11,648 nt of DNA from a virus. Both the position numbers and the translations under genes were made by a program. Positions 1-11,648 of this stretch are shown piece by piece. A model generated the notes under the pieces. It saw nothing but the letters and a program-made list of their open reading frames with translations, made no database searches and was not told where the DNA came from. The first letter of the stretch is position 1. Each line of letters begins with the position of its first letter. The DNA lies in the IMG/VR virus record IMGVR_UViG_3300035501_000484, positions 128,001 through 139,648 of that record; one strand, given 5' to 3'.

Positions 1-2098
1 TATATCCGCACTCTAAACAAGTGTCATTAGGTACATTGATCGCGAAATAAGGTATATCCTTAGCCATTGCATAATTAACAATAGTCTCTAATGCATCTAT
101 ATTATTTTTAACTCCGCCATCAAGCTCTACATAGGTAATGCATCCCGCAGAACTATATCCAGTAAGTTGAGATTCAATATCAATCTTATCAAAAGGGGAC
201 ATAGATTTCCATACTGGAACATGAATTGAATTAGTAAAAAACTCTTTATCAGATACATTTGGAATTTCGCCATATTTAGCTTTAAATTTTTTCATAGCGG
301 TATAGCAAAGATTCTCAGCTGGAGTATAATATACCCCAAAATTAAGTTTATATTCTTCCTTAAATTCAGCACATCTATCTTTAAAAAGTTGTTCAATTCT
401 TTTTGCTAATTTCATACCTTTTTCTGTTGTCTGGTCTGCCCCAATAAGAATTTGAAGTGTTTCTGCTAATCCAAGCTGTCCTATTGCAAGAGTTCCATGC
501 TTTAATGCTGAACGAATACCTTCTTCTGGAATGTATCCTTCCATTACATTATTTTCATACATAAATTTTGCAGAGTCAACAGATTGAGAACAAATCCAAT
601 TAAATCTTTCAATTAGCATATCTTTTGCTTCATTAATTTTTTTATCAAGAATTTCAAAAAATGAATCTACTGTATCTTGCTCTCTTGCTTGATTAGGCTC
701 TGGACTCCATGCATTAGCATCTTCTTTTGCTTCCATAGCAAGAGTAGGCATAATAATCGTTACAGGACAAATATTTCCTCTTCCATCTTTTCTTTGACCA
801 AATCCATTAATATCCCAACCATTAGCTGTGCGGCAGCCCATTGTTGAAAAATATGTACTTGGGTCATTGCGGTCATAACCCGCATTCCCGCTCCAATCAA
901 CATTAGCATAATTTGGATATAATCTTTTAGCTGTTGATTCAAGAGCTAATCTATATAAATCATAGTTAGGGGTTCCAGGTCTATCATTAACACCTTTCAT
1001 GTACTGAAAGATACCACAAGGGAATATTGAAGTTTTATGCAATTTTCCAATTCCTTCTTTTGAAACTTCCAATAATGCTTTAGTTATCATACGACCTTCT
1101 GGTAAAGTACAAGTACCATAGTTAATTGAAGTAAAAGGTAATTGGTTGCCGCTCCTTGACTGAAGTGTATTGAGATTATGATACATTCCTTCAACAGCTT
1201 GATAAACTTCTTTTTCAGTTTTATCAATAGCATATTTATATACTAAAGGATGTTTCTCTTTTAATTCTGCATTATCAATACTTTGATTATCTAAATGCTC
1301 AAACCATTTTTTAAAACGATTAACTTTATATTCAGATTTTTGTTCAATATAAGTTAAACCATCTTGAAAATGTTTAATAAATGATTTTTGTACATAAGGA
1401 ACCATAGTCCAGTCTAAATGCGTCGCAGAGACACCTCCAAATTGTTGAAGGGACTGTAATTGAAAAATAACAGCCACTAATTGAAAAGCTGTACTTACAG
1501 ATTGCGCAGGGCGCACATCTGTTTGTCTGGTATTAAATCCATTTGCCAATAGCGGGTCAAAAGGAATAGAAAGACAGTTATGGTCACCAACAGGATAATG
1601 AGATAAATCATGCACATAAATTTTATTATTTAAGTGATTATTTTTTGCCATAACTGACATACAATAATCCAACGCATACTTTTTCATAACCTCATCACTA
1701 GCAGAACCTATCCTTCCACCAAAAGACTTTTCATCAAGATTAGCATTTTGATTTTCAACATTAGCCGCAGATATTTTGTTAGAAATACCTTTTATAATTT
1801 CACTATTTCTTTCTCTTGCGCGAGTTCTTTCATTACGATAAGTGATGTATGCTCTAGCAACGTCTTTACGTTTTGTACTCATAAGACCTTTTTCAACCAT
1901 ATCTTGAATTTCTTCTACATTAAGAATATGGTCTGCATTTTCTGCCTGCTCTTGAATATAATCAGCTATATTTCCAGCTTTTGCATATGCGTAGTCACTT
2001 AATTCTCCATCAACCTCTTTAAACGCTCCAAATATCGCATCAATTATTTTATTTTGGTCGAATAGCTGTGTTGTGCCATCACGTTTTTGAATTTTCAT
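1..2098 (-). CDS. nrdD: Anaerobic ribonucleoside-triphosphate reductase (class III RNR, glycyl-radical enzyme), N-terminal ATP-cone; 3' end truncated by window edge
   Basis: Hand translation of the minus strand from ATG at 2098..2096, preceded by AGGAGG at 2109..2104 with a 5-nt spacer. It gives an uninterrupted frame to position 1, about 699 codons. N-terminus MKIQKRDGTTQLFDQNKIIDAI is an ATP-cone. Internal motifs are STMGCR (thiyl-radical Cys loop) and GRGNICPVTIIMPTLA (compare E. coli NrdD GRFNQGVVTINLPRI). The last visible residues NDTCLECGY are the first CxxC of the C-terminal Zn ribbon; the glycyl-radical motif would lie beyond the edge. Absent from the ORF track because no stop falls in the window. 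No other ORF of 60 aa or more competes on this strand, apart from an embedded out-of-frame 60-aa one. Confidence 0.85.
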   Translation of the reverse strand, partial: MKIQKRDGTTQLFDQNKIIDAIFGAFKEVDGELSDYAYAKAGNIADYIQEQAENADHILNVEEIQDMVEKGLMSTKRKDVARAYITYRNERTRARERNSEIIKGISNKISAANVENQNANLDEKSFGGRIGSASDEVMKKYALDYCMSVMAKNNHLNNKIYVHDLSHYPVGDHNCLSIPFDPLLANGFNTRQTDVRPAQSVSTAFQLVAVIFQLQSLQQFGGVSATHLDWTMVPYVQKSFIKHFQDGLTYIEQKSEYKVNRFKKWFEHLDNQSIDNAELKEKHPLVYKYAIDKTEKEVYQAVEGMYHNLNTLQSRSGNQLPFTSINYGTCTLPEGRMITKALLEVSKEGIGKLHKTSIFPCGIFQYMKGVNDRPGTPNYDLYRLALESTAKRLYPNYANVDWSGNAGYDRNDPSTYFSTMGCRTANGWDINGFGQRKDGRGNICPVTIIMPTLAMEAKEDANAWSPEPNQAREQDTVDSFFEILDKKINEAKDMLIERFNWICSQSVDSAKFMYENNVMEGYIPEEGIRSALKHGTLAIGQLGLAETLQILIGADQTTEKGMKLAKRIEQLFKDRCAEFKEEYKLNFGVYYTPAENLCYTAMKKFKAKYGEIPNVSDKEFFTNSIHVPVWKSMSPFDKIDIESQLTGYSSAGCITYVELDGGVKNNIDALETIVNYAMAKDIPYFAINVPNDTCLECGY

Positions 2099-2119
2099 AA
2101 ATACCTCCTATGTATTTAA

Positions 2120-2150
2120 ATTATATTAAGGATTTTACTATAAATATGAA
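2120..2150 (-). promoter_or_regulatory. Candidate sigma-A-like promoter for nrdD (weak -35 TTCATA, -10 TAATAT/TATAAT)
   Basis: On the minus strand there is TATAAT at 2125..2120, or TAATAT at 2127..2122. TTCATA sits at 2150..2145 with 17- or 19-nt spacing. An A/T-rich tract lies upstream, and the nrdD RBS AGGAGG lies about 11 nt downstream. Chance matches are common in this AT-rich DNA. Confidence 0.2.
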
Positions 2151-2166
2151 ATTTTTTTAAAAGAGA

Positions 2167-2742
2167 TTAATTTGCTATGACCAATTCTTTTAAAATGCCT
2201 TTCATTTGAGATACCATTTTTTTTTCATTTGTATTCTTATTATTGTTACTATATACTATATAGTCAAAATCTGCGTCAGAAAAATCTTTTTTATCTGCAA
2301 GAAATCTTCTGCATATTTCAGAACAATCTGGATTCTTTTCTCTCTTAAGGGAGCGAAGTAATCTATTTTTATCAGAGCAATATACATAAATAGGAATAAC
2401 ATTTAATCGAGAATCTTGAAGTAAACATTCAATAGCTTGTGGATTAAAGACTCCAATATTAATTTTATCTTTTTGAAGTGCGGAAATCGCTGTTCCATAG
2501 AACCATTCATTGAAACTTGTAGCTTCTAACATTGAGCCATCTAGTACCATATTAGCGAACTCCGCATTACTAACAAAATGATAATCAACATTATCTACTT
2601 CTTTTTCTCTTGATGGTCTAGTAGTATAAGACACAATTCCATTTATATTATCCATATTATTAACTATTGCTTTTTTAATAGTATCTTTCCCTGCGCCACT
2701 CTCTCCGAATAACGCAAGGATTGTGTATTTTTTATTCTCCAT
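2167..2742 (-). CDS. Nucleoside/deoxynucleoside monophosphate kinase of the guanylate-kinase family (P-loop)
   Basis: 191 aa. Walker A GESGAGKDT is at residues 13-21. SYTTRPSREKEVDNVDYHFV fits the guanylate kinase signature T-[ST]-R-x2-[KR]-x2-[DE]-x2-G-x2-Y-x-[FY], except that N replaces the signature Gly. Its start ATG overlaps the stop of the upstream 63-aa ORF by 11 nt. Confidence 0.75.
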   Translation of the reverse strand: MENKKYTILALFGESGAGKDTIKKAIVNNMDNINGIVSYTTRPSREKEVDNVDYHFVSNAEFANMVLDGSMLEATSFNEWFYGTAISALQKDKINIGVFNPQAIECLLQDSRLNVIPIYVYCSDKNRLLRSLKREKNPDCSEICRRFLADKKDFSDADFDYIVYSNNNKNTNEKKMVSQMKGILKELVIAN

Positions 2743-2923
2743 TATCTACCTCTTGATATAAAATACAAATTGAATGGTCTCCATATCTAGCTTGTTCATA
2801 TTTAAATTTTAATATTTCAATATTAGGATGTTCTTCAATCCATTTGTTAAATTGTTCATCAGCGTTGTCATAAAAACAATTTGAACTAGTTCCAAAGAAA
2901 ATTTTAGTTTTATATTTAATCAT
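2732..2923 (-). CDS. Small hypothetical protein (63 aa); tentative resemblance to the Cse60/DUF2758 small-protein family
   Basis: ORF packed between polA-like gene stop (2926) and the kinase start, overlapping the kinase by 11 nt, which suggests translational coupling. The pattern of a K-rich beta N-terminus, then FNKWIEEH, then NIEILKFKYEQA, then HSICILYQE recalls Cse60-like proteins. This is from memory only, not an alignment. Confidence 0.5.
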   Translation of the reverse strand: MIKYKTKIFFGTSSNCFYDNADEQFNKWIEEHPNIEILKFKYEQARYGDHSICILYQEVDNGE

Positions 2924-2925
2924 TA

Positions 2926-5900
2926 TTATTCTCCATTATTTACTTCAAATCTTTCATGTCTAAGTTCCATATTTCCATCTTTATCTATATTTTCTATTAT
3001 ATATAATTGATGCGTTGGAGTTGCCTTATAGGTTTTTCCAACAAACGTATCTTCACGCCTAAATCCTGTTACCATTATTTTTGTACCTCGATTGAACCAA
3101 CCTTTTTCTTTAACCTTCTTGCTTCCATCTTCTTGAATTTCAGAAATTTGGCGGTTATACATAGCATAATATTCTTTAGTAAATTTAACATTTACAACAC
3201 CAGTAGTGGTTAAAACAGAGACTGAAGAACGTGTATCATTTTTACCAATAACAGTTCCAATTATTTTATAAGTTTTATAAATAGGAATTTCTTTACCATT
3301 TCTTTTAAAGAAATAATCTACTTCAGGAGTTTCTGACATTTGAAAGAAATCTGATATTCCATATTTTTGGATATTAACATCTTTAAGCTCATGTTCGTGA
3401 TAATAAAAACATAAACTTTCCATTTCCCATGCGGAAATACTGCCTTGTGCATATTTATCCCAAGTTTCTTGGAATAAAAGATAGTTAAATTCTTTTAAAA
3501 CCTCACTTTGATGCTCTCCAAGCCAAGCTCGCGCATTATCCATTTCTTTTTGATAAATTTTATCCCATTCAGTTTGTAAGATACAAGTATACCCATTTAT
3601 TACTTCTAATGTTTCCATATTAAAGAATTGAGAATAAAACCTTTCGCACGTTTCATCAAAAACATAATATTTATTAACTTTTTTATTAGCCTTTAAATAC
3701 TTATTAAAAATGAATATTCGTTTTGTAAAATCTAAATCTGCTGGTACTAAATCTTTTTGAATTAATCCATTAAAATTTTGTAAAGTTAATCTTTTCTTTG
3801 GCTCACTTACTTTTGAAATATAATAAACCATAATTAACATTCTTGGTTCAATATTTAATTCTTTCGCCCATTCAAGTTCTAGATTATCAAAACTACCTGC
3901 TTTGATTAATGAAATCATAGCAGTTTTATTAAGCGGACAGCGGTTTAAAAAGTCGGTAAAATTCTCATAAGGGCGTCCCGCAATTATTTTATTTATTATA
4001 TCAGTATTAACCCCGCCTAAAGCCTTCATACCAAAAAGAATTTGATTATTTTCAATATCAGGTTCAAAACTAAAATTAGATTTATTAATATCTACTAAAG
4101 ATACTTTAATTCCTTTTGAAATAATATCTCCTAAAGCCTTAGCTACTTTAGCATAATCAGTTCCTTTTTCTTTCTTTTGAGTTGTTTCAGTTTCTTCATC
4201 ATTTTCATATTCAGAATCTTCATCTTCAAGAGAGCCGCTATTTACTATTAAACATGCGGTATTCCAATATATAGGATTCCATTTTGTTGCTATATACATA
4301 GTTTGAAAACCTATAAAAGAGTAGGCTAATGCATGAATGACCGAGAACGAATACCCCATTTGAGGGCCGATTCCATTCTCCCAAACATAATGTCCAAGAT
4401 TTTTAGACTTAGCTTGAGTAAGAACTTTTTCTTTTAATTCTGGAATCTTAGACATCTGTTTTTTACCAACTATCTTTCGTGCGGCGTTCGCTTCTGCAAG
4501 AGTAAAAGCACAAATATCTTTATCCATTAACATCATCATTAATTGTTCTTGGCTAGGTGGAACTCCATGAGATTTTAAGAAATATGGTTTTAAAGTTTCC
4601 TGCTCTTCTTTTGTCAATCCAGCGTTATCCATTTCTTTATACCAAAGATTAATATTATTCTTAAATCTAATATATTTTTCCATTGGAGTTTCTTGACCTT
4701 TTTCTGAAGTCATTAATCTCATTAATCCATTGGCATCCGCCATTTCTAAGATACTACTAGGCTTAATTTTCTTTGCGGCTTGACTTCCTACTTCTGAATC
4801 AAACTGAAAAATATTTAAAACACTATTTTCATGTAAAACTTTCCATATTTTATTATCTTCAATAGGTAAAACAGAAGGATGAAAATATTTATCATATACT
4901 TCTCTTAATGATAATGAGCTATCTATTTCATTATATTTTTGTAAAAGTTTAATAGCTTCTACAAGTTTATCTTGTACTTCTGTAACCAAGAAATCATACT
5001 TTGTCATACCTGCAGCCTCGCACATATGAAGGTCATATTGAGTAATAATTTCTCCTTTCGGAGTTCTCATAAAGCAACCAAACTCATATGGGTCCTCGTC
5101 AAATAAGATAACTCCAGATGCATGACTGCTACGTTTATTTACTAACCCTTCTATTGCAATCATAATATCTAATAGACCTGGGTATTGATTCACTTCATTA
5201 ATAAAAGTTTTAATTGGCTTTCTATCTTTATCGGGGTCGCCATAAAGAACTTCAGATAATGTCCATAAAAATCCTCTCTCAGAAGGAATTAATGAAGCCA
5301 TATACTGAGCTGTATCAGAATCTATTCCATCTGGATAATCTTCACTTCTATATCCGCGGCAAGCAGTTAATATAGTAGATTTTGTTCCTTCCGTTCCAAA
5401 CGTTGCAATAAGAGTACAACCTAAATTTTTCCTTGATAAATCATCAATACCATCTTTGAAGTTCTGTCCACGCTCTTCTTTTATTCTTTTAAGAATGAGT
5501 GGACGTTTACTTGGACATAAATCTAAATCGATATCGCCTAGCTCTGTACGCTCTTTATTTAAATATCTCCAGAATGGTAAATTCCACTCTAGTGGGTCCA
5601 ATTGTGTAATACCAAGAAGATAATGATTCAGTCCTGAGCAACTTGAGCCACGTCCCGCGCCAACTATACTGCCGCACTCCCAAAATAAATTTACATAATG
5701 TTGTAAAGTTACAGGATAAGAGAACATATTAGTTTCAAGTTTTTCTCCTATTGTTCTTTTTATATCAGCTTCTTCTTCAAGTCTTTGAACATATTCTTCA
5801 TTATCTGCCCAATTTCCAATTTTCTCATTTAAATTATTCCAACATTCATTTATCCAATATCTTTCTACTTTATCATCAGAAGTAAACATACTTTTAAGAA

Positions 5901-6921
5901 TTGGATACTTGGTCATTTCATCTGCATATGGATTATTAACTCCCCACCATGAAGATTTAGGATAATTTTTAACTTCTACTTTTGGAATTTGTTGCGGATG
6001 CCTTAAATCATAATTCTCAATTTTTTGATATATTTCCATACTATTATCAAACATTTGTTCAATAATAATAGATTTTTCATTTTCAAAACTTTTTGAAAGG
6101 TTACTTATAATTTCTTCATTGGTTTGAAGATATGAATATTCATAGAAATCATCTACTTCACGCTCCCCACCTTTTGAATTAAGATATGCTTTATGAACAA
6201 ATCTATCTTCCTTTTTAAGATAATGAGCATCAGTGCCAATTACCATTGGAATTTCAAAAGCTTGAGATATACTAAATAATCTTTTATTAACTGCCATTTG
6301 GTCTTTTGAACAGCCGGGCGCGCACTCTATATAAAAGTCGTCACCAAATAATTCCTGACACCAAAGAACAAAATCTACAATACGATTATGTGCATTTCTA
6401 GCTTCTTCAACATCATTAACTTTTTCTGTATTAATTAAATTTAATGTTTGAGTAGATAGTTCGCCTCCTAAACATGCGGTTGTTGCAATTAAAGAGTTAG
6501 GATATTTATGTACGATTTCCGCCAAATCTGAATATAATGTAACAACTCTTTCCATACCTCTATCATAATAAGAGTTCATCCATGCTCTTGAAGATAATTC
6601 TCTTAGAGCTTTATGACCTTGCATATTTTTTGCTATTAATATAAAATGATAATATTTTTGTCCATTTTCTCTATTTTGACATAAATATATTTCATTTCCT
6701 AATGCAATTTTAAAATTAGGATGTTCTTTTTGAATTTCATTTTGATATATATTTAATTCCATATGACTAGATAAGCAATCATGGTTAGTTATAGAAATAC
6801 CTGCTAAACCTAAATCAATCGCCCTATTAACTAAATCTTTTGGACGATTGATACAATCAAGAAGACGAATGTTGCTATACATGTCGTGACTATGAATCTC
6901 GAATCTATCTATTTTATTCAT
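2926..6921 (-). CDS. dnaE: DNA polymerase III alpha subunit, C-family (DnaE-type) replicative polymerase with N-terminal PHP domain
   Basis: 1331 aa. PHP motifs are FEIHSHDMYS (HxH), LLD, ITNHD, GGEL and IGTDAHY. Palm catalytic motif ITQLDPLEWNLPFWRYLNKERTELGDIDLDL matches DnaE ...DPL..LLFERFLNPER..PDIDIDF. Third-Asp region KRSSHASGVILFDED matches RxAGxHAAGVVI. HhH/fingers element VSLVDINKSNFSF...ILFGMKALGGVN matches LPPDINxS..F...IRFGLxAIKGVG. C-terminal OB-like region follows. RBS GGAGAG lies 5-6 nt upstream of ATG 6921. Confidence 0.9.
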   Translation of the reverse strand: MNKIDRFEIHSHDMYSNIRLLDCINRPKDLVNRAIDLGLAGISITNHDCLSSHMELNIYQNEIQKEHPNFKIALGNEIYLCQNRENGQKYYHFILIAKNMQGHKALRELSSRAWMNSYYDRGMERVVTLYSDLAEIVHKYPNSLIATTACLGGELSTQTLNLINTEKVNDVEEARNAHNRIVDFVLWCQELFGDDFYIECAPGCSKDQMAVNKRLFSISQAFEIPMVIGTDAHYLKKEDRFVHKAYLNSKGGEREVDDFYEYSYLQTNEEIISNLSKSFENEKSIIIEQMFDNSMEIYQKIENYDLRHPQQIPKVEVKNYPKSSWWGVNNPYADEMTKYPILKSMFTSDDKVERYWINECWNNLNEKIGNWADNEEYVQRLEEEADIKRTIGEKLETNMFSYPVTLQHYVNLFWECGSIVGAGRGSSCSGLNHYLLGITQLDPLEWNLPFWRYLNKERTELGDIDLDLCPSKRPLILKRIKEERGQNFKDGIDDLSRKNLGCTLIATFGTEGTKSTILTACRGYRSEDYPDGIDSDTAQYMASLIPSERGFLWTLSEVLYGDPDKDRKPIKTFINEVNQYPGLLDIMIAIEGLVNKRSSHASGVILFDEDPYEFGCFMRTPKGEIITQYDLHMCEAAGMTKYDFLVTEVQDKLVEAIKLLQKYNEIDSSLSLREVYDKYFHPSVLPIEDNKIWKVLHENSVLNIFQFDSEVGSQAAKKIKPSSILEMADANGLMRLMTSEKGQETPMEKYIRFKNNINLWYKEMDNAGLTKEEQETLKPYFLKSHGVPPSQEQLMMMLMDKDICAFTLAEANAARKIVGKKQMSKIPELKEKVLTQAKSKNLGHYVWENGIGPQMGYSFSVIHALAYSFIGFQTMYIATKWNPIYWNTACLIVNSGSLEDEDSEYENDEETETTQKKEKGTDYAKVAKALGDIISKGIKVSLVDINKSNFSFEPDIENNQILFGMKALGGVNTDIINKIIAGRPYENFTDFLNRCPLNKTAMISLIKAGSFDNLELEWAKELNIEPRMLIMVYYISKVSEPKKRLTLQNFNGLIQKDLVPADLDFTKRIFIFNKYLKANKKVNKYYVFDETCERFYSQFFNMETLEVINGYTCILQTEWDKIYQKEMDNARAWLGEHQSEVLKEFNYLLFQETWDKYAQGSISAWEMESLCFYYHEHELKDVNIQKYGISDFFQMSETPEVDYFFKRNGKEIPIYKTYKIIGTVIGKNDTRSSVSVLTTTGVVNVKFTKEYYAMYNRQISEIQEDGSKKVKEKGWFNRGTKIMVTGFRREDTFVGKTYKATPTHQLYIIENIDKDGNMELRHERFEVNNGE

Positions 6922-6951: not shown

Positions 6952-6980
6952 ATTATATCATAATTTTTATTAAAAATCAA
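6952..6980 (-). promoter_or_regulatory. Sigma-A-type promoter P2 (TTGATT-N17-TGaTATAAT) driving polymerase gene
   Basis: Minus strand has TTGATT at 6980..6975, a 17-nt spacer, and extended -10 TGATATAAT at 6960..6952. The expected TSS is near 6945 and the GGAGAG RBS at 6932..6927. Nearly identical to P1 at 9346..9374. Confidence 0.5.
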
Positions 6981-7001
6981 AAAGAGTGCTTAGTACTCTT
7001 T
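6972..7001 (-). terminator. Candidate rho-independent terminator (9-bp stem, 3-nt loop, with a U-tract) overlapping the stop codon of the 71-aa ORF
   Basis: Inverted repeat aaagagtgc/tta/gtactcttt at 6981..7001 with one G-U pair. On the minus-strand transcript it is followed by UUGAUUUUUAAU. The hairpin contains the TAA stop of ORF 6990..7205. Confidence 0.4.
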
Positions 7002-7205
7002 ACTATAAGACATTCCTCTCAAACTAGCATAATGGAGAAGATTTTTTACTATATTATTTAAAGATTCATCATCTAGTTCTAATAAACTCATTCCATCTGG
7101 TAGAGCAATAACAGTTTCATCTGGACAACGTTTGACTATATCATTGTACAATTCAGCTACTGCATTTAAATCATTTTTTTCTAAATTATATTGTAAAACT
7201 AACAT
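6990..7205 (-). CDS. Small acidic hypothetical protein (71 aa)
   Basis: RBS GGAGA 8 nt upstream of ATG 7205. It has 12 Asp/Glu against 6 Lys/Arg. No recognisable motif. Confidence 0.55.
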   Translation of the reverse strand: MLVLQYNLEKNDLNAVAELYNDIVKRCPDETVIALPDGMSLLELDDESLNNIVKNLLHYASLRGMSYSKEY

Positions 7206-7436
7206 TATTATTTTCTCCTATAAGTTTAAAATATCTATCAATTACCTCATTTATACCAGAACTAGGTAAACACAATTCGCCTTTATTTCTATCTTTAACA
7301 TTTGTAATTACATATAACATATTATCATTAAATAAATCTAATTCTATATCTAATCTATATCCAGTTTCTTCATTACTAAGTAAAGTATAAACTGGTTTAT
7401 TAAAAAGTATAGTTTTTTTACATCATTCTTTGTCAT
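7186..7436 (-). pseudogene. Small gene apparently split by a frameshift at an A7 homopolymer; -1 slippage or an extra A would restore it to about 85 aa
   Basis: ATG at 7436 follows AGAGGT by about 10 nt and opens a 28-aa frame ending TAG. A -1 shift at the A7 run (minus-strand 7419..7413, GTA AAA AAA CTA) joins it to a stop-free frame. That frame encodes ...TILFNKPVYTLLSNEETGYRLDIELDLFNDNMLYVITNVKDRNKGELCLPSSGINEVIDRYFKLIGENNNVSFTI and ends TAA at 7188..7186. No intact ORF of 60 aa or more lies in 7206..7478, although coding is dense elsewhere. Confidence 0.4.
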
Positions 7437-7478
7437 AATATTTATTTACCTCTTCATAATATAAATCAATTGCCTCTC

Positions 7479-7667
7479 CTATATCAATAGAAGAACTATA
7501 TATATTAATTCTCCTACTATATCTGTAATATCATATTCACTAATTGTATTATTCAATAAATCTAATATAGCAACTAATCTGACTCCTGCTTTATCATTAT
7601 TTAATAATACTTTATTTATATTAGTTTGATAAAAATAACATTTTATTTCTTTAGATGTCCAATTCAT
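7479..7667 (-). CDS. Small hypothetical protein (62 aa)
   Basis: ATG at 7667 lies 2 nt after the stop of the upstream small ORF. Hydrophobic C-terminus ELIYIVLLLI. No motif recognised. Confidence 0.5.
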   Translation of the reverse strand: MNWTSKEIKCYFYQTNINKVLLNNDKAGVRLVAILDLLNNTISEYDITDIVGELIYIVLLLI

Positions 7668-7669
7668 TA

Positions 7670-7822
7670 TTATTTCCCATGTTTACCTAAATTTACAACA
7701 TCATATTTAATTAAACAATAAATTCCTTTAAAAATAAATTGAAATAAATTTAAACTATAATCACATATCTCCCATGAATTATCATTTATATTTCTTGCTG
7801 TAATAGAATATTTTCCGCCCAT
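7670..7822 (-). CDS. Small hypothetical protein (50 aa; the ORF track gives a 74-aa version from an upstream ATG inside the helicase)
   Basis: Internal ATG at 7822 is preceded by AAGGAGATAAAT. That RBS lies immediately after the helicase stop TAA at 7836..7834. The 74-aa version would overlap 61 nt of the helicase C-terminus in another frame. Confidence 0.45.
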   Translation of the reverse strand: MGGKYSITARNINDNSWEICDYSLNLFQFIFKGIYCLIKYDVVNLGKHGK

Positions 7823-7833
7823 ATTTATCTCCT

Positions 7834-9015
7834 TTAATCTTTTTGAATAATTACAAGTTTCTCTGAGGCGCGCGTAGCCGCGGTATAGAGCCATCGAGCA
7901 TGCTCTTCTTTATCAAATGGAAATTTTTCTTCTACGACTAAAACTTTTTCAAATTCGCTACCTTGCGCCTTATGGCAAGTTATTGCGTATCCATAAGTGA
8001 ATTGTTTTGGTACTAAAAGTCTAGTTTTAGGATTTTTAGATAATTTAAAAGAAGTTTTCCAATTTAAACTACTTTCACCTGTAATTATCATATCTCTATC
8101 CATATCAAGAGAGCTAAAAATAGAATTACTATCAGTTTTAAAATTACAATTTAAAATAGGAATCTGCTGACCTTCCGCCCATCTTGGCAACTGTACAAAA
8201 GTAGTAAAACAATTATCAATCCAACCAATAGTACCATTAATTAGCGGGTCTTCACCATCGTCCGAAAAGCTATCCCAATAATTCCTCAAACAGACGATTT
8301 TGTCTCCATTTTGAGGTTTCAAATTATTTAATCCCGACAATTGACGCATTTGAGTATTTAACGCTACTCTTGTAGCATTTGTTGCACATATTACTTGGTC
8401 TGCCCATTGTAACATACCTGTATTAAGTTCATCCTTATGAGATACTATAACTTCATTTCCTTGAATTGGTTTTATTGATTTACCAGCTCTAATATCCATA
8501 GTTAAACGAATTATTTCTGATTCTTGCGCTTGTCGCATTATTTCATCAAGGAATATATGCGGGTGGTCTAATAAATGATTATCCTCGTCTTTATCTACAG
8601 GTGGTAACTGAAATGGGTCCCCTAAGCAAATTATATGAACATTATAAGTTGCAAGTAAAGTCATTAAAGATTTAGGTGCCATAGATACTTCATCTACAAT
8701 TATAATATCATATGGAATAGATTCAACGGGAATACGACCAAAAGTTCCATCTGATTTAGGAAAACTCTTATATAATAATTTATGTAAAGTTTTTACATTC
8801 TTATTACCTTTTTTTAAAAGAACCTGTGCAGCTTTACCTGTAAAGCACGCAAAGCAAACTCTATCTTCATCTACATCTAATGCTTCTATAATAAATTTAA
8901 CTAGGGTCGACTTCCCTGTACCTGCATATCCTGAAATTACAGTATACTTTTCATGGTTTTTATATCTAGTTAATGCGATTTTAAGTCCTTCATTTTGACG
9001 ATTGGTTAATATCAT
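7834..9015 (-). CDS. SF1B DNA helicase of the RecD/Dda/Pif1-like family
   Basis: 393 aa. Motif I is ISGYAGTGKST (Walker A), motif II IIIVDEVSM, motif V YAITCHKAQGSEFEKVLVV and motif VI YTAATRA. These are characteristic of RecD-like 5'-3' helicases; phage T4 Dda is the same class. Its ATG lies 1 nt after the stop of the 92-aa ORF, and GGAGAA sits 8 nt upstream. Confidence 0.85.
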   Translation of the reverse strand: MILTNRQNEGLKIALTRYKNHEKYTVISGYAGTGKSTLVKFIIEALDVDEDRVCFACFTGKAAQVLLKKGNKNVKTLHKLLYKSFPKSDGTFGRIPVESIPYDIIIVDEVSMAPKSLMTLLATYNVHIICLGDPFQLPPVDKDEDNHLLDHPHIFLDEIMRQAQESEIIRLTMDIRAGKSIKPIQGNEVIVSHKDELNTGMLQWADQVICATNATRVALNTQMRQLSGLNNLKPQNGDKIVCLRNYWDSFSDDGEDPLINGTIGWIDNCFTTFVQLPRWAEGQQIPILNCNFKTDSNSIFSSLDMDRDMIITGESSLNWKTSFKLSKNPKTRLLVPKQFTYGYAITCHKAQGSEFEKVLVVEEKFPFDKEEHARWLYTAATRASEKLVIIQKD

Positions 9016-9016
9016 T

Positions 9017-9295
9017 TTAATTATTCTCCATTTTATGAGCTTGCGAAAATTGCTCTAAAATATGATAAAAATGTTGTTTTTGACTATTAGCCCACACTTC
9101 TCTATTAAAAGATTGACAATTATTGCGGGCGCGCTCTTCTTTTAATATTGCTAATTCATCAATTGCAATTGCATATCTAAAATAAATGCTATCAAACCCA
9201 AAATCTAATCTATCTTTAACAATTTTATTTAATTCATCTTTATCAATCATAGTAATGTTTAATTTTTTATATAAATCTTTAATATCATCAGTCAT
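9017..9295 (-). CDS. Hypothetical protein (92 aa)
   Basis: First gene after promoter P1. RBS GGAGA at 9309..9305 lies 9 nt from ATG 9295. No motif recognised. Confidence 0.55.
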   Translation of the reverse strand: MTDDIKDLYKKLNITMIDKDELNKIVKDRLDFGFDSIYFRYAIAIDELAILKEERARNNCQSFNREVWANSQKQHFYHILEQFSQAHKMENN

Positions 9296-9345
9296 AATTT
9301 ATTATCTCCTTTAATAACTTCTTATATCTTTTATTTTCTATAATT

Positions 9346-9374
9346 ATTATATCATATTTTTATATAAAAATCAA
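9346..9374 (-). promoter_or_regulatory. Sigma-A-type promoter P1 (TTGATT-N17-TGaTATAAT)
   Basis: Minus strand has TTGATT at 9374..9369, a 17-nt spacer, and TGATATAAT at 9354..9346. It abuts the terminator hairpin on its upstream side. By my count 25 of 29 positions are identical to P2. Confidence 0.5.
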
Positions 9375-9413
9375 AAAATAGGTTTTAGATGAAAAATTTC
9401 CAAAACCTATTTT
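9366..9413 (-). terminator. Candidate rho-independent terminator after the recJ-like gene (12-bp stem, 15-nt loop, U-tract)
   Basis: Perfect inverted repeat aaaataggtttt (9375..9386) with aaaacctatttt (9402..9413). On the minus transcript the stem is followed by UUUGAUUUUUAU. It starts 35 nt downstream of the RecJ-like stop at 9449. The stem is AT-rich, so it is weak. Confidence 0.4.
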
Positions 9414-9448
9414 AAATTTGAAGATGCGAGTGTCTGCAGCCCGAATAG

Positions 9449-11212
9449 TTAAAAGAAGTATTTAGATGAATCTACAATCTCATAATCTTCAAGTAATATT
9501 TGTGCATTTACATATCCGTTCCATTCATTACGATTACACTTTCCCACTAAGTCAATCTTTACATAACCATCTGTAGCTATTTTATTATATTCTTCTTGAC
9601 TAGAGCCAAACTTAATAATAGATACTTTATTAGGTAAAACAATTTTTAATGTAGGAGTCCTATCAGGAGACATTAGTGTAACCATATCTTTAGTAACTTT
9701 TAAACCTTTAATTGCTATGAGACTTTCTTCGAGGTCTTTTCCCCAAAAACCGTCCATCTCTGCAATATCAAGTATATTTTGAGGATTTACTTCATTACCT
9801 TCATAGATGTAATCAACATAATATAATGCTTCTGAAGGCATATCTTTTAATGCTTCATCTGTAGCGGCAATAAAATCATTAATATCTTGTTCGCGGATTC
9901 CTAGACCAAAGGCGCCTTGATGTCCTGCTGTAAAAAGCGTTAGACCAGTACCCGCGCAAATATCTTTAAAATGAGTAACTCCAACTTGGTCGCATCCTCT
10001 TGCAGAACCTTGATAAGAGATTTCATTATCTTCTTCTACTCTTGTAAGAACACAGCAAGGTCTTTGATAACGTGCCATGAGTTTATTAGCCACCAATCCC
10101 GCAATATTTCGGTCTATTTGCCCAGGTTCTATAAGAAACAACAATACTTTATGTTCAAGCATATTATCTTCCGCAATCTTATTTTCTAAAAATTCCATTC
10201 CTGCATCTTGCGCTCTTGTTTGTCTATTTTTTACATTAGTACAAGTTCTTATTGCCTGTTCTACTCTTTGTTCCTCTTCGCCTAATTTATGTCCTCTTTT
10301 ATTTGAAGGTATCATATCAAAAGCCTTCATTGAAAGCATTGACTCAAATAATAATTCTTTTTCCTCTTGAGTTCCACTTCTTACCATTGCATTAACAAAA
10401 GGAGCAATATAAAATGCAGCGCCCCATGAAGTTATATGTTCGCCTAGCTTAAATTGGTTCTTTTGCCACATATTATAAATAAAAGGATTATGAATATTTT
10501 CAGGCTCGAATCCTTTATTAATTAAATGTTTTGTTTCTATAGATTGAAGGCTCATCATATCTGCGGTATTACCAAGAGCTACAAGGTCTAAAAATTTATC
10601 AGCATAATTTTTATTTAATAAACTATCTATATATTTACAAAACTGATAAGTTATACCAACTCCACTTAAATTTTTATTGGGATAGTCACTAAGTTGATTG
10701 TTAATAATTATAGCATCTTCAGATGCGTATTCAGCTTCATGGTGGTCAAGCACTATAACTGGAATATTATTTTCTTTTAATTTAGCATGATATGAATAAT
10801 CGTTAGACCCAGCATCAGGAACAATAACTAAAGCAAAATGTTGTTCAATAATATAATCATAACAATCACTTAATCCATGCTGTTTTCCTTCATGTATTAT
10901 CCATCTTATATATTTTTGCGTCCACGCGGGAAACGCTTCATATAAATAATTTATAAGTGACGCAGAGCTGGTGAAACCATCGCAATCTGCATCCACTACA
11001 ACTACTACATATTGTTGTTTGCTAATACAAGATATTAATATTTTTGCTGCAATTAATAATTGTGCTTCTCCTAGTAATAATGGAGAGTTAATATCTTTAT
11101 CTGTTGTATTTATGTAATGTGGAATATCTTCATATGATATTCCTCTATTAGTAAGTACCTGTTCTAAAGCAGAGTATTTAGAATTAACAGGTTTTATAAG
11201 TTTATATTTCAT
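9449..11212 (-). CDS. recJ: RecJ-like single-stranded-DNA-specific exonuclease (DHH phosphoesterase with DHHA1 domain)
   Basis: 587 aa. DHH motif I is VVVVDADCDGFTSSASL, motif II IVPDAGSND, motif III VIVLDHHEA and motif IV GNTADMMSL. DHHA1 is GxGHxxAxG as TAGHQGAFGLGI. About 140 aa follow, consistent with a RecJ OB-like tail. The size matches RecJ cores and phage RecJ-like proteins such as SPbeta YorK. Confidence 0.8.
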   Translation of the reverse strand: MKYKLIKPVNSKYSALEQVLTNRGISYEDIPHYINTTDKDINSPLLLGEAQLLIAAKILISCISKQQYVVVVVDADCDGFTSSASLINYLYEAFPAWTQKYIRWIIHEGKQHGLSDCYDYIIEQHFALVIVPDAGSNDYSYHAKLKENNIPVIVLDHHEAEYASEDAIIINNQLSDYPNKNLSGVGITYQFCKYIDSLLNKNYADKFLDLVALGNTADMMSLQSIETKHLINKGFEPENIHNPFIYNMWQKNQFKLGEHITSWGAAFYIAPFVNAMVRSGTQEEKELLFESMLSMKAFDMIPSNKRGHKLGEEEQRVEQAIRTCTNVKNRQTRAQDAGMEFLENKIAEDNMLEHKVLLFLIEPGQIDRNIAGLVANKLMARYQRPCCVLTRVEEDNEISYQGSARGCDQVGVTHFKDICAGTGLTLFTAGHQGAFGLGIREQDINDFIAATDEALKDMPSEALYYVDYIYEGNEVNPQNILDIAEMDGFWGKDLEESLIAIKGLKVTKDMVTLMSPDRTPTLKIVLPNKVSIIKFGSSQEEYNKIATDGYVKIDLVGKCNRNEWNGYVNAQILLEDYEIVDSSKYFF

Positions 11213-11247: not shown

Positions 11248-11648
11248 TTATAAATATATCCTTTCTTTAAATAATTCTAAGAAAATTTCTTTTCCATTAT
11301 CTATCGGACTCATTTTATAATTAAGTTTATCTCCTTTTTTATCAAAAACAAAAGAGATTTGAACATATGGACTATATTTCTTATGAATATCAGTTAGTTT
11401 CTTAGTCCATTTTTTAAATTCTTCATCTCCAGATTTTTGAAATTGTTTATCAAAAGCCACAATAATTTCTTGAACTCCAAGAGATAAAAGTAATTTAACT
11501 TGATAACTTATCAAAGAACTTCCGCAACAAGCTACTGAAATATCATTTTCTTCTCCAAAATAACTAGCATAAAGGAGACATGATTTCTCGCCTTCAAATA
11601 CTATCGCCCGCCGCATTATTTTTATGTTATCTTTACTATTGTTTAAAT
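11248..11648 (-). CDS. C-terminal portion of a primase-like protein (TOPRIM domain); 5' end off window
   Basis: The frame is open upstream to the window edge, with no in-frame stop before the listed ATG and no RBS there. VFEGEKSCLL...VACCGSSLIS...EIIVAFDKQFQKSGDEE parallels the T7 gp4/DnaG TOPRIM pattern EGExD...G.GA...IIxxFDxDxAG. The expected DxD reads DKQ here. Confidence 0.45.
   Translation of the reverse strand, partial: LNNSKDNIKIMRRAIVFEGEKSCLLYASYFGEENDISVACCGSSLISYQVKLLLSLGVQEIIVAFDKQFQKSGDEEFKKWTKKLTDIHKKYSPYVQISFVFDKKGDKLNYKMSPIDNGKEIFLELFKERIYL

Follow-up and report, generated by a model that had tools for sequence, protein, structure and literature searches.

Is the replication-gene cluster of this phage expressed as one transcript or as several units, and what marks the borders between them? 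The window analysed here comprises 11,648 nt (positions 128,001 to 139,648 of IMG/VR record IMGVR_UViG_3300035501_000484), and all coordinates below refer to it. Two of its intergenic regions carry a 29-nt promoter-like sequence, termed P1 and P2, immediately preceded by a stem-loop. A sequence-only reading had taken these as members of one promoter family recognized by host sigma-A, each paired with an upstream terminator, and as the borders of three transcription units. With a probability of roughly 70%, we regard P1 and P2 as intergenic expression cassettes in which a strong promoter of the host sigma-A type is joined to the terminator stem-loop of the preceding unit.

Cassettes and predicted transcription units in the window

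9449–11212, minus strand: RecJ-like DHH exonuclease (YorK-like; Pfam DHH, DHHA1, RecJ_OB), closing the upstream unit
9369–9450, minus strand: conserved intergenic element of ~85 nt, beginning directly after the RecJ-like stop codon (9449–9451), with the P1 hairpin inside
9375–9413, minus strand: P1 hairpin, 15-bp stem (arms 9399–9413 and 9375–9389), 9-nt loop
9346–9374, minus strand: promoter P1, TTGATTTTTATATAAAAATATGATATAAT
9369–9374, minus strand: P1 -35, TTGATT
9353–9354, minus strand: P1 TG, within the TRTG/-16 motif TATG
9346–9351, minus strand: P1 -10, TATAAT
6990–9295, minus strand: unit 2 (ORF92, SF1/Dda-like helicase, ORF74, ORF62, ORF44, ORF71)
9017–9295, minus strand: ORF92, first gene of unit 2, ATG at 9295
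7834–9015, minus strand: SF1/Dda-like helicase, unit 2
6990–7205, minus strand: ORF71, unit 2, stop codon 6990–6992
6981–7001, minus strand: P2 hairpin, 7-bp stem AAAGAGU/ACUCUUU with 2 G-C pairs, abutting the -35
6952–6980, minus strand: promoter P2, TTGATTTTTAATAAAAATTATGATATAAT
6975–6980, minus strand: P2 -35, TTGATT
6959–6960, minus strand: P2 TG
6952–6957, minus strand: P2 -10, TATAAT
1–6921, minus strand: unit 3 (DnaE-type Pol III alpha, ORF63, guanylate-kinase-like gene, nrdD-like ORF)
2926–6921, minus strand: DnaE-type Pol III alpha, unit 3, ATG at 6921
2732–2923, minus strand: ORF63, unit 3
2167–2742, minus strand: guanylate-kinase-like gene, unit 3
from near 2097, leaving the window at base 1, minus strand: nrdD-like ORF, unit 3

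Both 29-mers lie on the minus strand, which is the coding strand, exactly as had been described, and at both a stem-loop directly abuts TTGATT. Each consists of TTGATT, a 17-nt spacer made up only of A and T, and TG-A-TATAAT, with the TRTG -16 motif present in the two promoters (TATG-A-TATAAT). The -10 matches TATAAT at 6/6 positions, and the -35 matches TTGACA at 4/6 with TTG intact. The likeness between P1 and P2 extends about 20 nt past the 29-mer, through AwTTATAkAAAATAAA(A)GAT. Transcription from P1, the predicted promoter of ORF92, would start at A 9339, and transcription from P2, the predicted promoter of the DnaE-type polymerase, at A 6945.

The replication cluster would be expressed as separately driven units, namely YorH-DnaB-primase-RecJ, ORF92-helicase-small ORFs and pol-ORF63-kinase-nrdD. 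The first unit, given earlier as primase to recJ, would comprise YorH, DnaB, primase and RecJ, headed by a third hairpin-plus-promoter cassette that lies outside the window before the YorH-like gene. The source genome contains six cassettes within 20.6 kb, all in gene orientation and half of them (3/6) with an abutting hairpin; four of the six sit upstream of the window. No family promoters were found inside unit 2, and the gap between the kinase gene and nrdD is without a family cassette. A -10-like TATAAT in that gap was rejected as a promoter, having no -35 and no TG and lying 21 nt from the ATG. Many relatives lack a promoter directly before the polymerase gene, so the division into units varies within the clade.

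These cassettes come from a large phage of the gut whose relatives include SPbeta and Enterococcus phage VRE9. The RecJ-like gene is syntenic with SPbeta yorK and with a RecJ-like gene of the cultured Enterococcus phage VRE9_3 (PP680569.1), whose gene order is that of the window's phage: Sak4, DnaB, primase-like, RecJ-like, small ORFs, Dda-like helicase, polymerase and guanylate kinase. A near-identity DNA search of the phage collection gave no match, the source being a 21-kb JGI metagenome contig, and the only host clues are 'Bacilli' and 'Clostridia' MAG contigs, which are possibly the phage itself. SPbeta early genes are transcribed by the host RNA polymerase and its late operon by YonO; by this analogy, the cassette-driven genes would be early genes.

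A recurring promoter family in related phages

We searched 50 related loci from the SPbeta / Enterococcus phage VRE9-like clade with the pattern TTGA..-N14-TG.TA.AAT, the spacer being relaxed by ±1 nt. Of the 155 sites that it matched, 150 lay on the gene strand and 5 on the opposite one, and 143 had the 17-nt spacer. Since the pattern fixes part of the motif, conservation of the hexamers is circular, and only the flanking and spacer positions are independent. Among 95 non-redundant sites, the bases before TG are T (82/95) and A (73/95), giving TRTG, and one position of the spacer A-tract is A in 87/95. The predicted start is preceded by T(-1) in 71/95 and is A(+1) in 77/95, while TTGA is followed by C or T in 89/95 and then by T or A. 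The resulting consensus, TTGAyTTTT-W3-AAAAA-tTATGaTATAAT-ATwTATAgAAA, is common to phages with polymerases merely 51–83% identical, and P1 fits both this consensus and the T(-1)A(+1) rule.

Strand, position and spacing of the sites all suit genes. Downstream of 87/95 sites lie a Shine-Dalgarno sequence (SD) and a start codon that opens an ORF of ≥40 aa, at a median distance from -10 to SD/start codon of 32 nt (IQR 29–36), and 11/95 sites fall within a long open frame, compared with 82% of random positions. The motif also recurs before other genes, the point on which the sequence-only reading had staked its claim of a promoter family, with four more cassettes in the genome and ~100 non-redundant ones in relatives.

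The conserved positions outside the pattern are those at which sigma-A promoters are conserved, including the TRTG motif described previously (PMC6570832). The family shares TTGAnn, a 17-nt spacer, TATAAT and an immediately upstream TATG with the Gram-positive sigma-A extended -10 class, as well as an A/T-rich spacer and discriminator and a purine start 7 nt past the -10. It is also alike in standing before early-type (replication) genes in many near-consensus copies per genome. The TRTGnTATAAT class includes strong early promoters of Bacillus phages, for example SPO1 and phi29. From these hallmarks, all of which are present, we infer that P1, P2 and their family are extended -10 promoters of the sigma-A type. 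P1 and P2 each combine the -35 TTGATT and its 17-nt A/T spacer with the TRTG/-16 motif and a flawless extended -10, TGATATAAT; the predicted start is T-A, and a leader of ~25–45 nt with an SD follows. Unlike the usual sigma-A -35, the family promoters carry TTGATT or TTGACT plus a T-run, not TTGACA, whenever a hairpin abuts.

In VRE9_3, promoters of the form TTGACTTTTT-N-ATGRTATAAT stand before the primase-like, helicase and polymerase genes as an unannotated feature, and the kinase gene has a TTGACA promoter without a T-run.

The near-identity of P1 and P2 is ordinary within its subclass. At non-contact positions the two are 81% identical, where the family as a whole has a mean of 54%; for pairs drawn from the TTGATTTTT subclass the mean is 68%, and 13% of them reach 81%. 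Tight constraint on this subclass accounts for the close match, which does not single out these two sites as a pair, and a recent duplication is not needed to explain it. One related locus (L001) has a 29-mer identical to P2 before its polymerase gene.

Taken as a whole, P1 and P2 appear to be ordinary strong host-type promoters of a known kind, with ~100 more in related phages. Current understanding is unchanged by them, as phage early regions are expected to have strong consensus promoters that are paired with terminators. The analysis yields usable rules for promoters and terminators in a widespread clade of uncultured gut and rumen phages (~100–160 kb), relatives of SPbeta and Enterococcus phage VRE9; these rules help in annotating operons, choosing start codons and designing synthetic-biology parts for low-G+C Firmicutes.

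Hairpins joined to the promoters

Hairpins and family promoters are coupled far above chance, in agreement with the proposed terminator-promoter pairing. A hairpin with dG ≤ -8 lies within 42 nt upstream of 45% of sites, compared with 9.9% of random positions (p = 9e-9), and a terminator-like hairpin ends between -30 and +20 of the -35 at 49/101 sites, compared with 5.8% at random. Conversely, of the 79 strong terminators on the gene strand, 35 lie with a family promoter at -17 to +20 nt, where 1.5% would be expected. The coupling extends to the sequence of the -35 region: at least 5 T occur in the next 6 nt at 86% of stem-abutting sites and at 30% elsewhere (Fisher p = 4e-7), and TTGACA is used at 2/29 stem-abutting sites versus 30/66 others (p = 1.5e-4). 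Promoters with the unusual TTGATTTTT -35 region form the subclass that is abutted or overlapped by a terminator hairpin.

The two hairpins of the window are not equivalent, and the assignment of a terminator to each promoter is only partly supported. The P1 hairpin folds at -14.8 to -16.1 kcal/mol (z = -4.8), a value reached by 0/200 shuffles. Its stem is A/U-rich, whereas the stems of intrinsic terminators are normally G+C-rich. In orthologues, 73% of cells are paired, with the best fit at slide 0, and 8/15 pairs are changed on both sides, a number as high in 1/500 shuffles. It is a candidate intrinsic terminator of the YorH-DnaB-primase-RecJ unit. The P2 hairpin, whose loop contains the ORF71 stop codon, folds at -4.9 kcal/mol (z = -0.12), and 85/200 shuffles fold as well. 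Its stem is shared by only three close relatives, too few for covariation, and we consider it at best a weak terminator or attenuator. A stronger stem, AAAGAGTG/CACTCTTT, occupies the equivalent place in three related loci (L006, L007 and L036). A rule-based terminator scan of the window listed neither hairpin, because the P1 loop is too long for its rules and the P2 stem has too few G-C pairs.

A U-rich tract, for which the terminator criterion is 7–9 nt, is present directly after both stems: the P1 stem ends in CCUAUUUU and the P2 stem in ACUCUUU, each followed without a gap by UUGAUUUUU, which coincides with the -35 region. The T-rich -35 region probably doubles as the U-tract of an intrinsic terminator, and we propose that TTGATT plus a T-run stands in place of TTGACA for this reason. 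With G and A at tract positions 3–4, UUGAUUUUU should terminate more weakly. Upstream transcripts would halt, fully or partly, exactly where the new transcript begins. In VRE9_3, the primase-like, helicase and polymerase sites each have a hairpin, AAAAAGTCAAG-N7-CTTGACTTTTT, whose 3' arm is the -35 and whose stem thus includes the hexamer (GTCAAG...CTTGAC), whereas the window stem stops one base short of the -35.

Further and alternative readings

That the U-tract (or stem) and the -35 share bases may go beyond mere compaction and be an evolved device. On release at the terminator, RNA polymerase would already sit on the next promoter and re-initiate there, and the units would be coupled while each retained its own strength. 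The genomic proximity of terminators and promoters and the recycling of RNA polymerase to the nearest promoter have been discussed (PMC11347151). The cassettes resemble such arrangements in having a stem-loop and T-rich tract just past a stop codon with a promoter a few nt away; they differ in that the signals described there are tens to hundreds of bp apart, whereas here the -35 region either serves as the U-tract or is part of the stem. About 30 sites form a clean natural test set for two questions, namely whether one tract can be both U-tract and -35 region and whether termination beside a promoter feeds re-initiation. If the tract is shared, swapping TTGATTTTT for TTGACAAAA with the stem kept would change termination.

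A second tentative reading, which like the first we consider possible rather than probable, takes the ~85-nt element around the P1 hairpin as an undescribed cis-regulatory element. It consists of a G/C-rich 5' part, a TCG at invariant position (9427–9429), an A-rich stretch, the core GGTTTTGGA (9399–9407) and a T-run, following the pattern TCG-N21-GGTTTTGGA-T5-6, always in gene orientation. An nhmmer search with the element model gave 31 hits, all on the gene strand of polymerase loci. We count 29 non-redundant copies, some without a nearby promoter, and the element also precedes helicase, Sak4-like and RuvC-like genes, sometimes without a sigma-A promoter. Among the matches listed in whole-collection scans for the core, most are due to chance, and at least ~6 true copies were added. 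By hand inspection, hairpins form in differing registers around the fixed core; RNAalifold on 18 copies gave no consensus structure. In Rfam scans, neither the window's hairpins nor its copy of the element gave a match (E ≤ 1), and three related loci (L018, L022 and L045) gave nothing relevant (E ≤ 0.5). VRE9_3 lacks the GGTTTTGGA element, unlike the window, and the element model did not match there. Nor did it match the examined SPbeta regions, which include the gap upstream of yonK with the YonO start site, leaving a link to the YonO promoter unsupported. The argument that the element is a promoter from its place between terminator and gene is weakened by the Sak4-like gene of the source genome, which follows a terminator and lacks both the element and a promoter. 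Besides any role in termination, the element may act in cis as a regulator in this clade; it could be bound by a phage transcription factor, or it could be a promoter of another class.

It is unlikely that the cassettes are promoter-plus-operator repeats through which a phage master repressor or activator co-regulates the replication units. Binding at the spacer T5-N-A5 quasi-palindrome or past the -10 would then preserve near-identity outside the hexamers, as in the 81% identity of P1 and P2, and the P1 spacer ATTTTTATATAAAAAT is indeed a perfect palindrome. The precedent is SPbeta, a phage with the same replication-gene synteny, in which near-identical promoter-like repeats such as TAGACAAAGATAAAAAATATGTATATAAT and TAGACAAAAACAAATAATATGTATATAAT occupy several intergenic sites, among them one before yorE, which heads the syntenic replication cluster, and one just past yorL. 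These SPBRE repeats, like P1 and P2 first noticed from sequence alone, are binding sites of the master repressor MrpR (PMC10516654). In sequence, however, SPBRE (TAGACA...TATGTATATAAT) is unlike the window's TTGATTTTT...TATGATATAAT. The core AATATGTATATAATAA, taken from the SPbeta repeats (15-bp motif), has no match in the window at ≤2 mismatches, and at 3 mismatches neither P1 nor P2 has a match on its promoter strand. The ~20 kb of source genome covered showed no repressor gene. A genome-specific operator should raise similarity within genomes, yet non-contact similarity is barely higher within than between them (0.564 vs 0.540, permutation p = 0.03), which is marginal support. Furthermore, A/T palindromes are common in A/T-only sequence, the conserved positions are known sigma-A features (TRTG, A/T spacer, Y-R start), and the consensus spans the diverged phages described above.

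Similarly improbable is the reading in which the stem-loops are not terminators, so that the cluster would in effect be a single long unit boosted by internal promoters. As RNA, the stems would act as 3'-end stabilizers or RNase processing sites of a long polycistronic transcript; as DNA, the inverted repeats would modulate the adjacent -35 by occluding the promoter or forming a cruciform. Efficient termination is not expected of the P2 stem, which is too weak for it. In the source genome, a good terminator-like hairpin precedes the first exon of the Sak4-like gene with no promoter in between, and such hairpins must therefore often be read through. In VRE9_3 and several other loci the stem includes the -35 hexamer, so that promoter DNA could equally be affected. 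Against this, stems vary in sequence from site to site while remaining complementary, with loops of 3 to 15 nt, which favours a structure folded from one strand over a binding site for a dimeric protein. T-runs follow the stems on the gene strand only, and 0/60 opposite-strand terminator-like hairpins have a family promoter within -17 to +20 nt, which is the signature of intrinsic terminators.

That P1 and P2 resemble each other as a functionless chance product of A/T-rich intergenic DNA can be set aside: although weak matches are uninformative in a window of ~30% G+C, where a generic promoter scan found 76 promoter-like sites against 70 expected, a match to the 29-mer arose in 0/200 dinucleotide-preserving shuffles, and the motif recurs ~150 times with a 30:1 strand bias at a fixed distance from start codons. 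P1 and P2 were the sole 10/12 matches with TG in that scan.

Gene order of the window and its relatives

The genes of the window all lie on the minus strand, and two near-identical 29-mer promoters, each with a hairpin upstream that makes it a cassette, stand ahead of ORF92 (P1) and ahead of the polymerase gene (P2). The cassettes are ordinary in kind: strong host-type promoters fused to terminators within a phage replication cluster. The functions that we infer for them, and for a conserved element described below, are read from sequence.

Genes and cassettes of the window, in transcription order
11248-11616 and beyond, minus strand: Toprim primase gene, 3' part, first in order
9449-11212, minus strand: RecJ-like DHH exonuclease, after the primase
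9346-9374, minus strand: P1
9017-9295, minus strand: ORF92, after the RecJ-like gene
7834-9015, minus strand: SF1/Dda-like helicase, after ORF92 and followed by four small ORFs
6952-6980, minus strand: P2
2926-6921, minus strand: DnaE-type Pol III alpha, after the four small ORFs and followed by ORF63
2167-2742, minus strand: guanylate-kinase-like gene, after ORF63
open to base 1, minus strand: nrdD-like frame, last in order

The window polymerase shares 39% identity with YorL of SPbeta and with the polymerases of the Enterococcus faecium phages VRE9 and H1, and a search of the phage collection returned no record near-identical to the window. A 21-kb JGI metagenome contig (L051, the source contig) encodes the exact RecJ-like protein of the window and carries, in order, YorF, a Sak4-like AAA_24 gene, YorH, DnaB, a YorJ-like primase, RecJ, ORF92 with the helicase block, and DnaE. 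This is the yorF-yorL order of SPbeta, and the helicase insertion also occurs in Enterococcus phage VRE9_3. Relatives were found in 45 IMG/VR loci and four MAG contigs from rabbit gut and sheep rumen, with a polymerase best-segment identity of about 51-87%. Many of the related polymerase loci lie on contigs of 100-160 kb; over 262 residues, one short contig matches the window perfectly.

Several gene calls deserve comment. In the metagenome gene call the polymerase begins 13 codons further in (1318 aa), which affects 6883-6921 on the minus strand. A GGAG stands 8 nt ahead of the ATG at 6921, and this ATG lies 30 nt past the P2 -10 and yields the N-terminus seen in relatives (MNRFE...); of the two readings, the one of 1331 aa is probably right. 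ORF74 (7670-7894, minus strand) shares 61 nt (7834-7894) with the 3' end of the helicase ORF, read in a different frame, and is either a genuine overlapping small gene or has an incorrect start. In L051, upstream of the window, the Sak4-like gene is interrupted within its Walker A motif, between YGEPKS and GKTT, by a 1114-nt insert (4638-5751) in which an ORF for a LAGLIDADG homing endonuclease lies; by tblastn, residues 4-31 map to 4554-4637 and residues 32-341 to 5752-6681. The insert looks like a group I intron, with no intron match in Rfam.

A predicted promoter family shared with related loci

The sequence-only reading gave the two 29-mers exactly, and its observation that both are present beyond chance is real: a degenerate 29-mer with at most three mismatches recovered P1 and P2 alone in the window and nothing in 200 shuffles. 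They are also the sole 10/12 matches with TG in a generic promoter scan of the window, which was otherwise uninformative (76 sites versus 70 expected). Their likeness runs on for about 20 nt downstream of the 29-mer. Their identity at non-contact positions is 81%, where the family as a whole averages 54%; within the subclass defined by TTGATTTTT, the T-run form of the -35 region, pairs average 68% (sd 9%) and 13% of them attain 81%. Since the T-run, A-tract and TRTG permit little variation, the resemblance needs no recent duplication.

Across the related loci, the strict pattern TTGATTTTT-N9-13-TGnTATAAT matched 28 times, always on the polymerase strand, and the looser TTGA..-N14-TG.TA.AAT (spacer ±1 nt) matched 150 times on that strand versus 5 on the opposite one, with a 17-nt spacer in 143 of 155 sites. 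Once near-duplicates were taken out, 95 family sites were left. Outside the search pattern, T and A precede the TG in 82 and 73 of these, giving TRTG, the Gram-positive -16 motif (PMC6570832). The spacer contains an A-tract and is nearly free of G and C, and T(-1)A(+1) follows 7 nt past the -10 (71/95 and 77/95 sites). Because such positions are conserved at sigma-A promoter features without having been part of the pattern, we count them as evidence for a promoter family. Furthermore, a Shine-Dalgarno sequence, a start codon and an ORF of at least 40 aa lie downstream of 87/95 sites, at a median distance of 32 nt (IQR 29-36), and sites fall inside a long open frame in 11/95 cases versus 82% of random positions.

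The motif recurs before further genes, with six sites in 20.6 kb of the source genome, every one gene-oriented; VRE9_3 likewise carries family promoters ahead of its primase-like, helicase, polymerase and kinase genes. Taken as a prediction, the promoter interpretation is well supported by the comparison of sequences, and the case for the family is as strong as sequence alone can make it. From their consensus, these promoters would be read by host sigma-A, which is also consistent with SPbeta, where early genes are expressed via host RNAP and one late operon via the phage RNAP YonO (PMC5467207).

Hairpins, predicted terminators and transcription units

A stem-loop had been proposed to abut each TTGATT. 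Both stems do end one base before the hexamer, but they are of unequal quality. The P1 hairpin folds at -14.8 to -16.1 kcal/mol (z = -4.8), whereas that of P2 reaches -4.9 kcal/mol (z = -0.12) and is equalled by 85/200 shuffles. The P1 stem is retained in nine relatives at the orthologous position downstream of RecJ, with 73% of cells paired, both-sided changes in 8/15 pairs (1/500 shuffles as high) and the best fit at zero slide; the register is shifted in some relatives. At the P2 position, a stronger version of the stem (AAAGAGTG/CACTCTTT) is found in three related loci (L006, L007, L036), other relatives carry unrelated strong stems ahead of their polymerase promoter, and many lack a promoter at this position. 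Given its weak stem and these relatives, the P2 hairpin is an attenuator at most. The suggested pairing of terminators with promoters is supported at P1 and weak at P2.

Across the family, structures with dG <= -8 occur within 42 nt upstream of 45% of sites versus 9.9% of random positions. Terminator-like hairpins, defined as a perfect stem followed by a T-run, end at -30 to +20 of the -35 in 49/101 sites (5.8% at random) and abut or overlap the promoter in 32 of 101 (2.3% at random). Among strong gene-strand terminators, 35/79 have a family promoter at -17 to +20 nt (expected 1.5%), as opposed to 0/60 opposite-strand terminators. Stem sequences vary between sites, which favours a folded strand over a protein site.

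Stem-abutted sites, the type to which P1 and P2 both belong, have at least five T in the next six bases in 86% of cases versus 30% otherwise (p = 4e-7), and carry TTGACA in 2/29 cases versus 30/66. In the simplest reading, TTGAyTTTT would double as -35 region and terminator U-tract. Alternative registers place the -35 inside the stem (VRE9_3, L035, L048) or make TTGA the loop, with the T-run just ahead of TG (L008 13960). That terminator and promoter share bases so systematically is modestly new. In the cultured VRE9_3 (L283, PP680569.1), the -35 hexamer is the 3' arm of a hairpin at three replication-cluster promoters (6857, 10101, 11928), of the form (AAAAA)GTCAAG, a 7-11 nt loop, CTTGAC, TTTTT, unannotated in that record.

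Exactly two family cassettes lie in the window, with none in the primase-RecJ, ORF62-ORF44 and kinase-nrdD gaps. Of the three transcription units envisaged earlier, the second and third, beginning at ORF92 and at the polymerase, stand as proposed, but the first has its start outside the window. Position 6744 of L051, ahead of the YorH-like gene, carries a third cassette with an abutting hairpin, whose stem folds at -14 to -19 kcal/mol (z -4.2).

L051 6700-6772, outside the window: third cassette, GAGGCTAGCTTTAAAGGCGAGCCTC then TTTTTGATTTATTTAAAAAAATATGTTATAAT

An ORF call of 47 aa that overlaps this cassette is probably spurious. Within the ORF62-ORF44 gap (7321-7478, minus strand, 158 nt) are an 11-codon mini-ORF (MTKNDVKKLYF) and the stem CCAGTTT...AAACTGG, which has 7 bp, closes a 21-nt loop and lacks a T-run.

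A conserved element around P1 and the operator question

The P1 hairpin sits inside a conserved element of about 85 nt (window ~9369-9450, minus strand) that runs between the RecJ stop codon and P1. Its 5' part is rich in G/C and frequently self-complementary, though the register varies; then come a TCG at constant distance, a stretch rich in A, the core GGTTTTGGA and a T-run, in the arrangement TCG, about 21 nt, GGTTTTGGA and T5-6. A profile built from 11 copies matches the polymerase loci 31 times, in every case on the gene strand; with extra loci included, there are 29 non-redundant copies.

Copies of the element in related and extra loci, all in gene orientation
L018 220-306 and 18212-18295
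L022 1006-1085
L025 14804-14888
L045 18453-18520
L049 6492-6576
L246, L181, L234 and L262

Most copies have RecJ upstream and a family promoter downstream, the core lying 26-29 nt ahead of the -35; others stand ahead of Sak4-like or RuvC-like genes without a sigma-A-type promoter. Some directly follow a strong terminator (L018 220 and 18212, L022 1006, L246). No Rfam match and no consensus fold were found for the element, nor was it found in VRE9_3 or the SPbeta regions examined. The element may represent a family of terminators that has retained an ancestral core, a site bound by a phage regulator, or a promoter of a second class. The promoter reading is weakened by the Sak4-like gene of the source genome, which follows a terminator with neither element nor promoter. 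The GGTTTTGGA element is a modestly new feature.

An operator may be embedded in P1 and P2, but this finds no positive support. Non-contact similarity is barely higher within genomes (0.564) than between them (0.540; p = 0.03, marginal), which counts against an operator specific to one genome. The closest documented parallel to the cassettes is SPBRE of SPbeta, a repeat whose promoter-like copies precede yorE and yorZ and follow yorL and which serves as operator of the MrpR repressor (PMC10516654); the core of SPBRE is absent at P1 and P2. In SPbeta (L050, NC_001884.1) the repeat forms a full promoter-like unit of TAGACA, 17 nt and TATGTATATAAT at 7578-7610, 18898-18930 and 24145-24180. One copy falls inside yorM as annotated, at the 5' end, a hint that the start given for this gene lies too far upstream.
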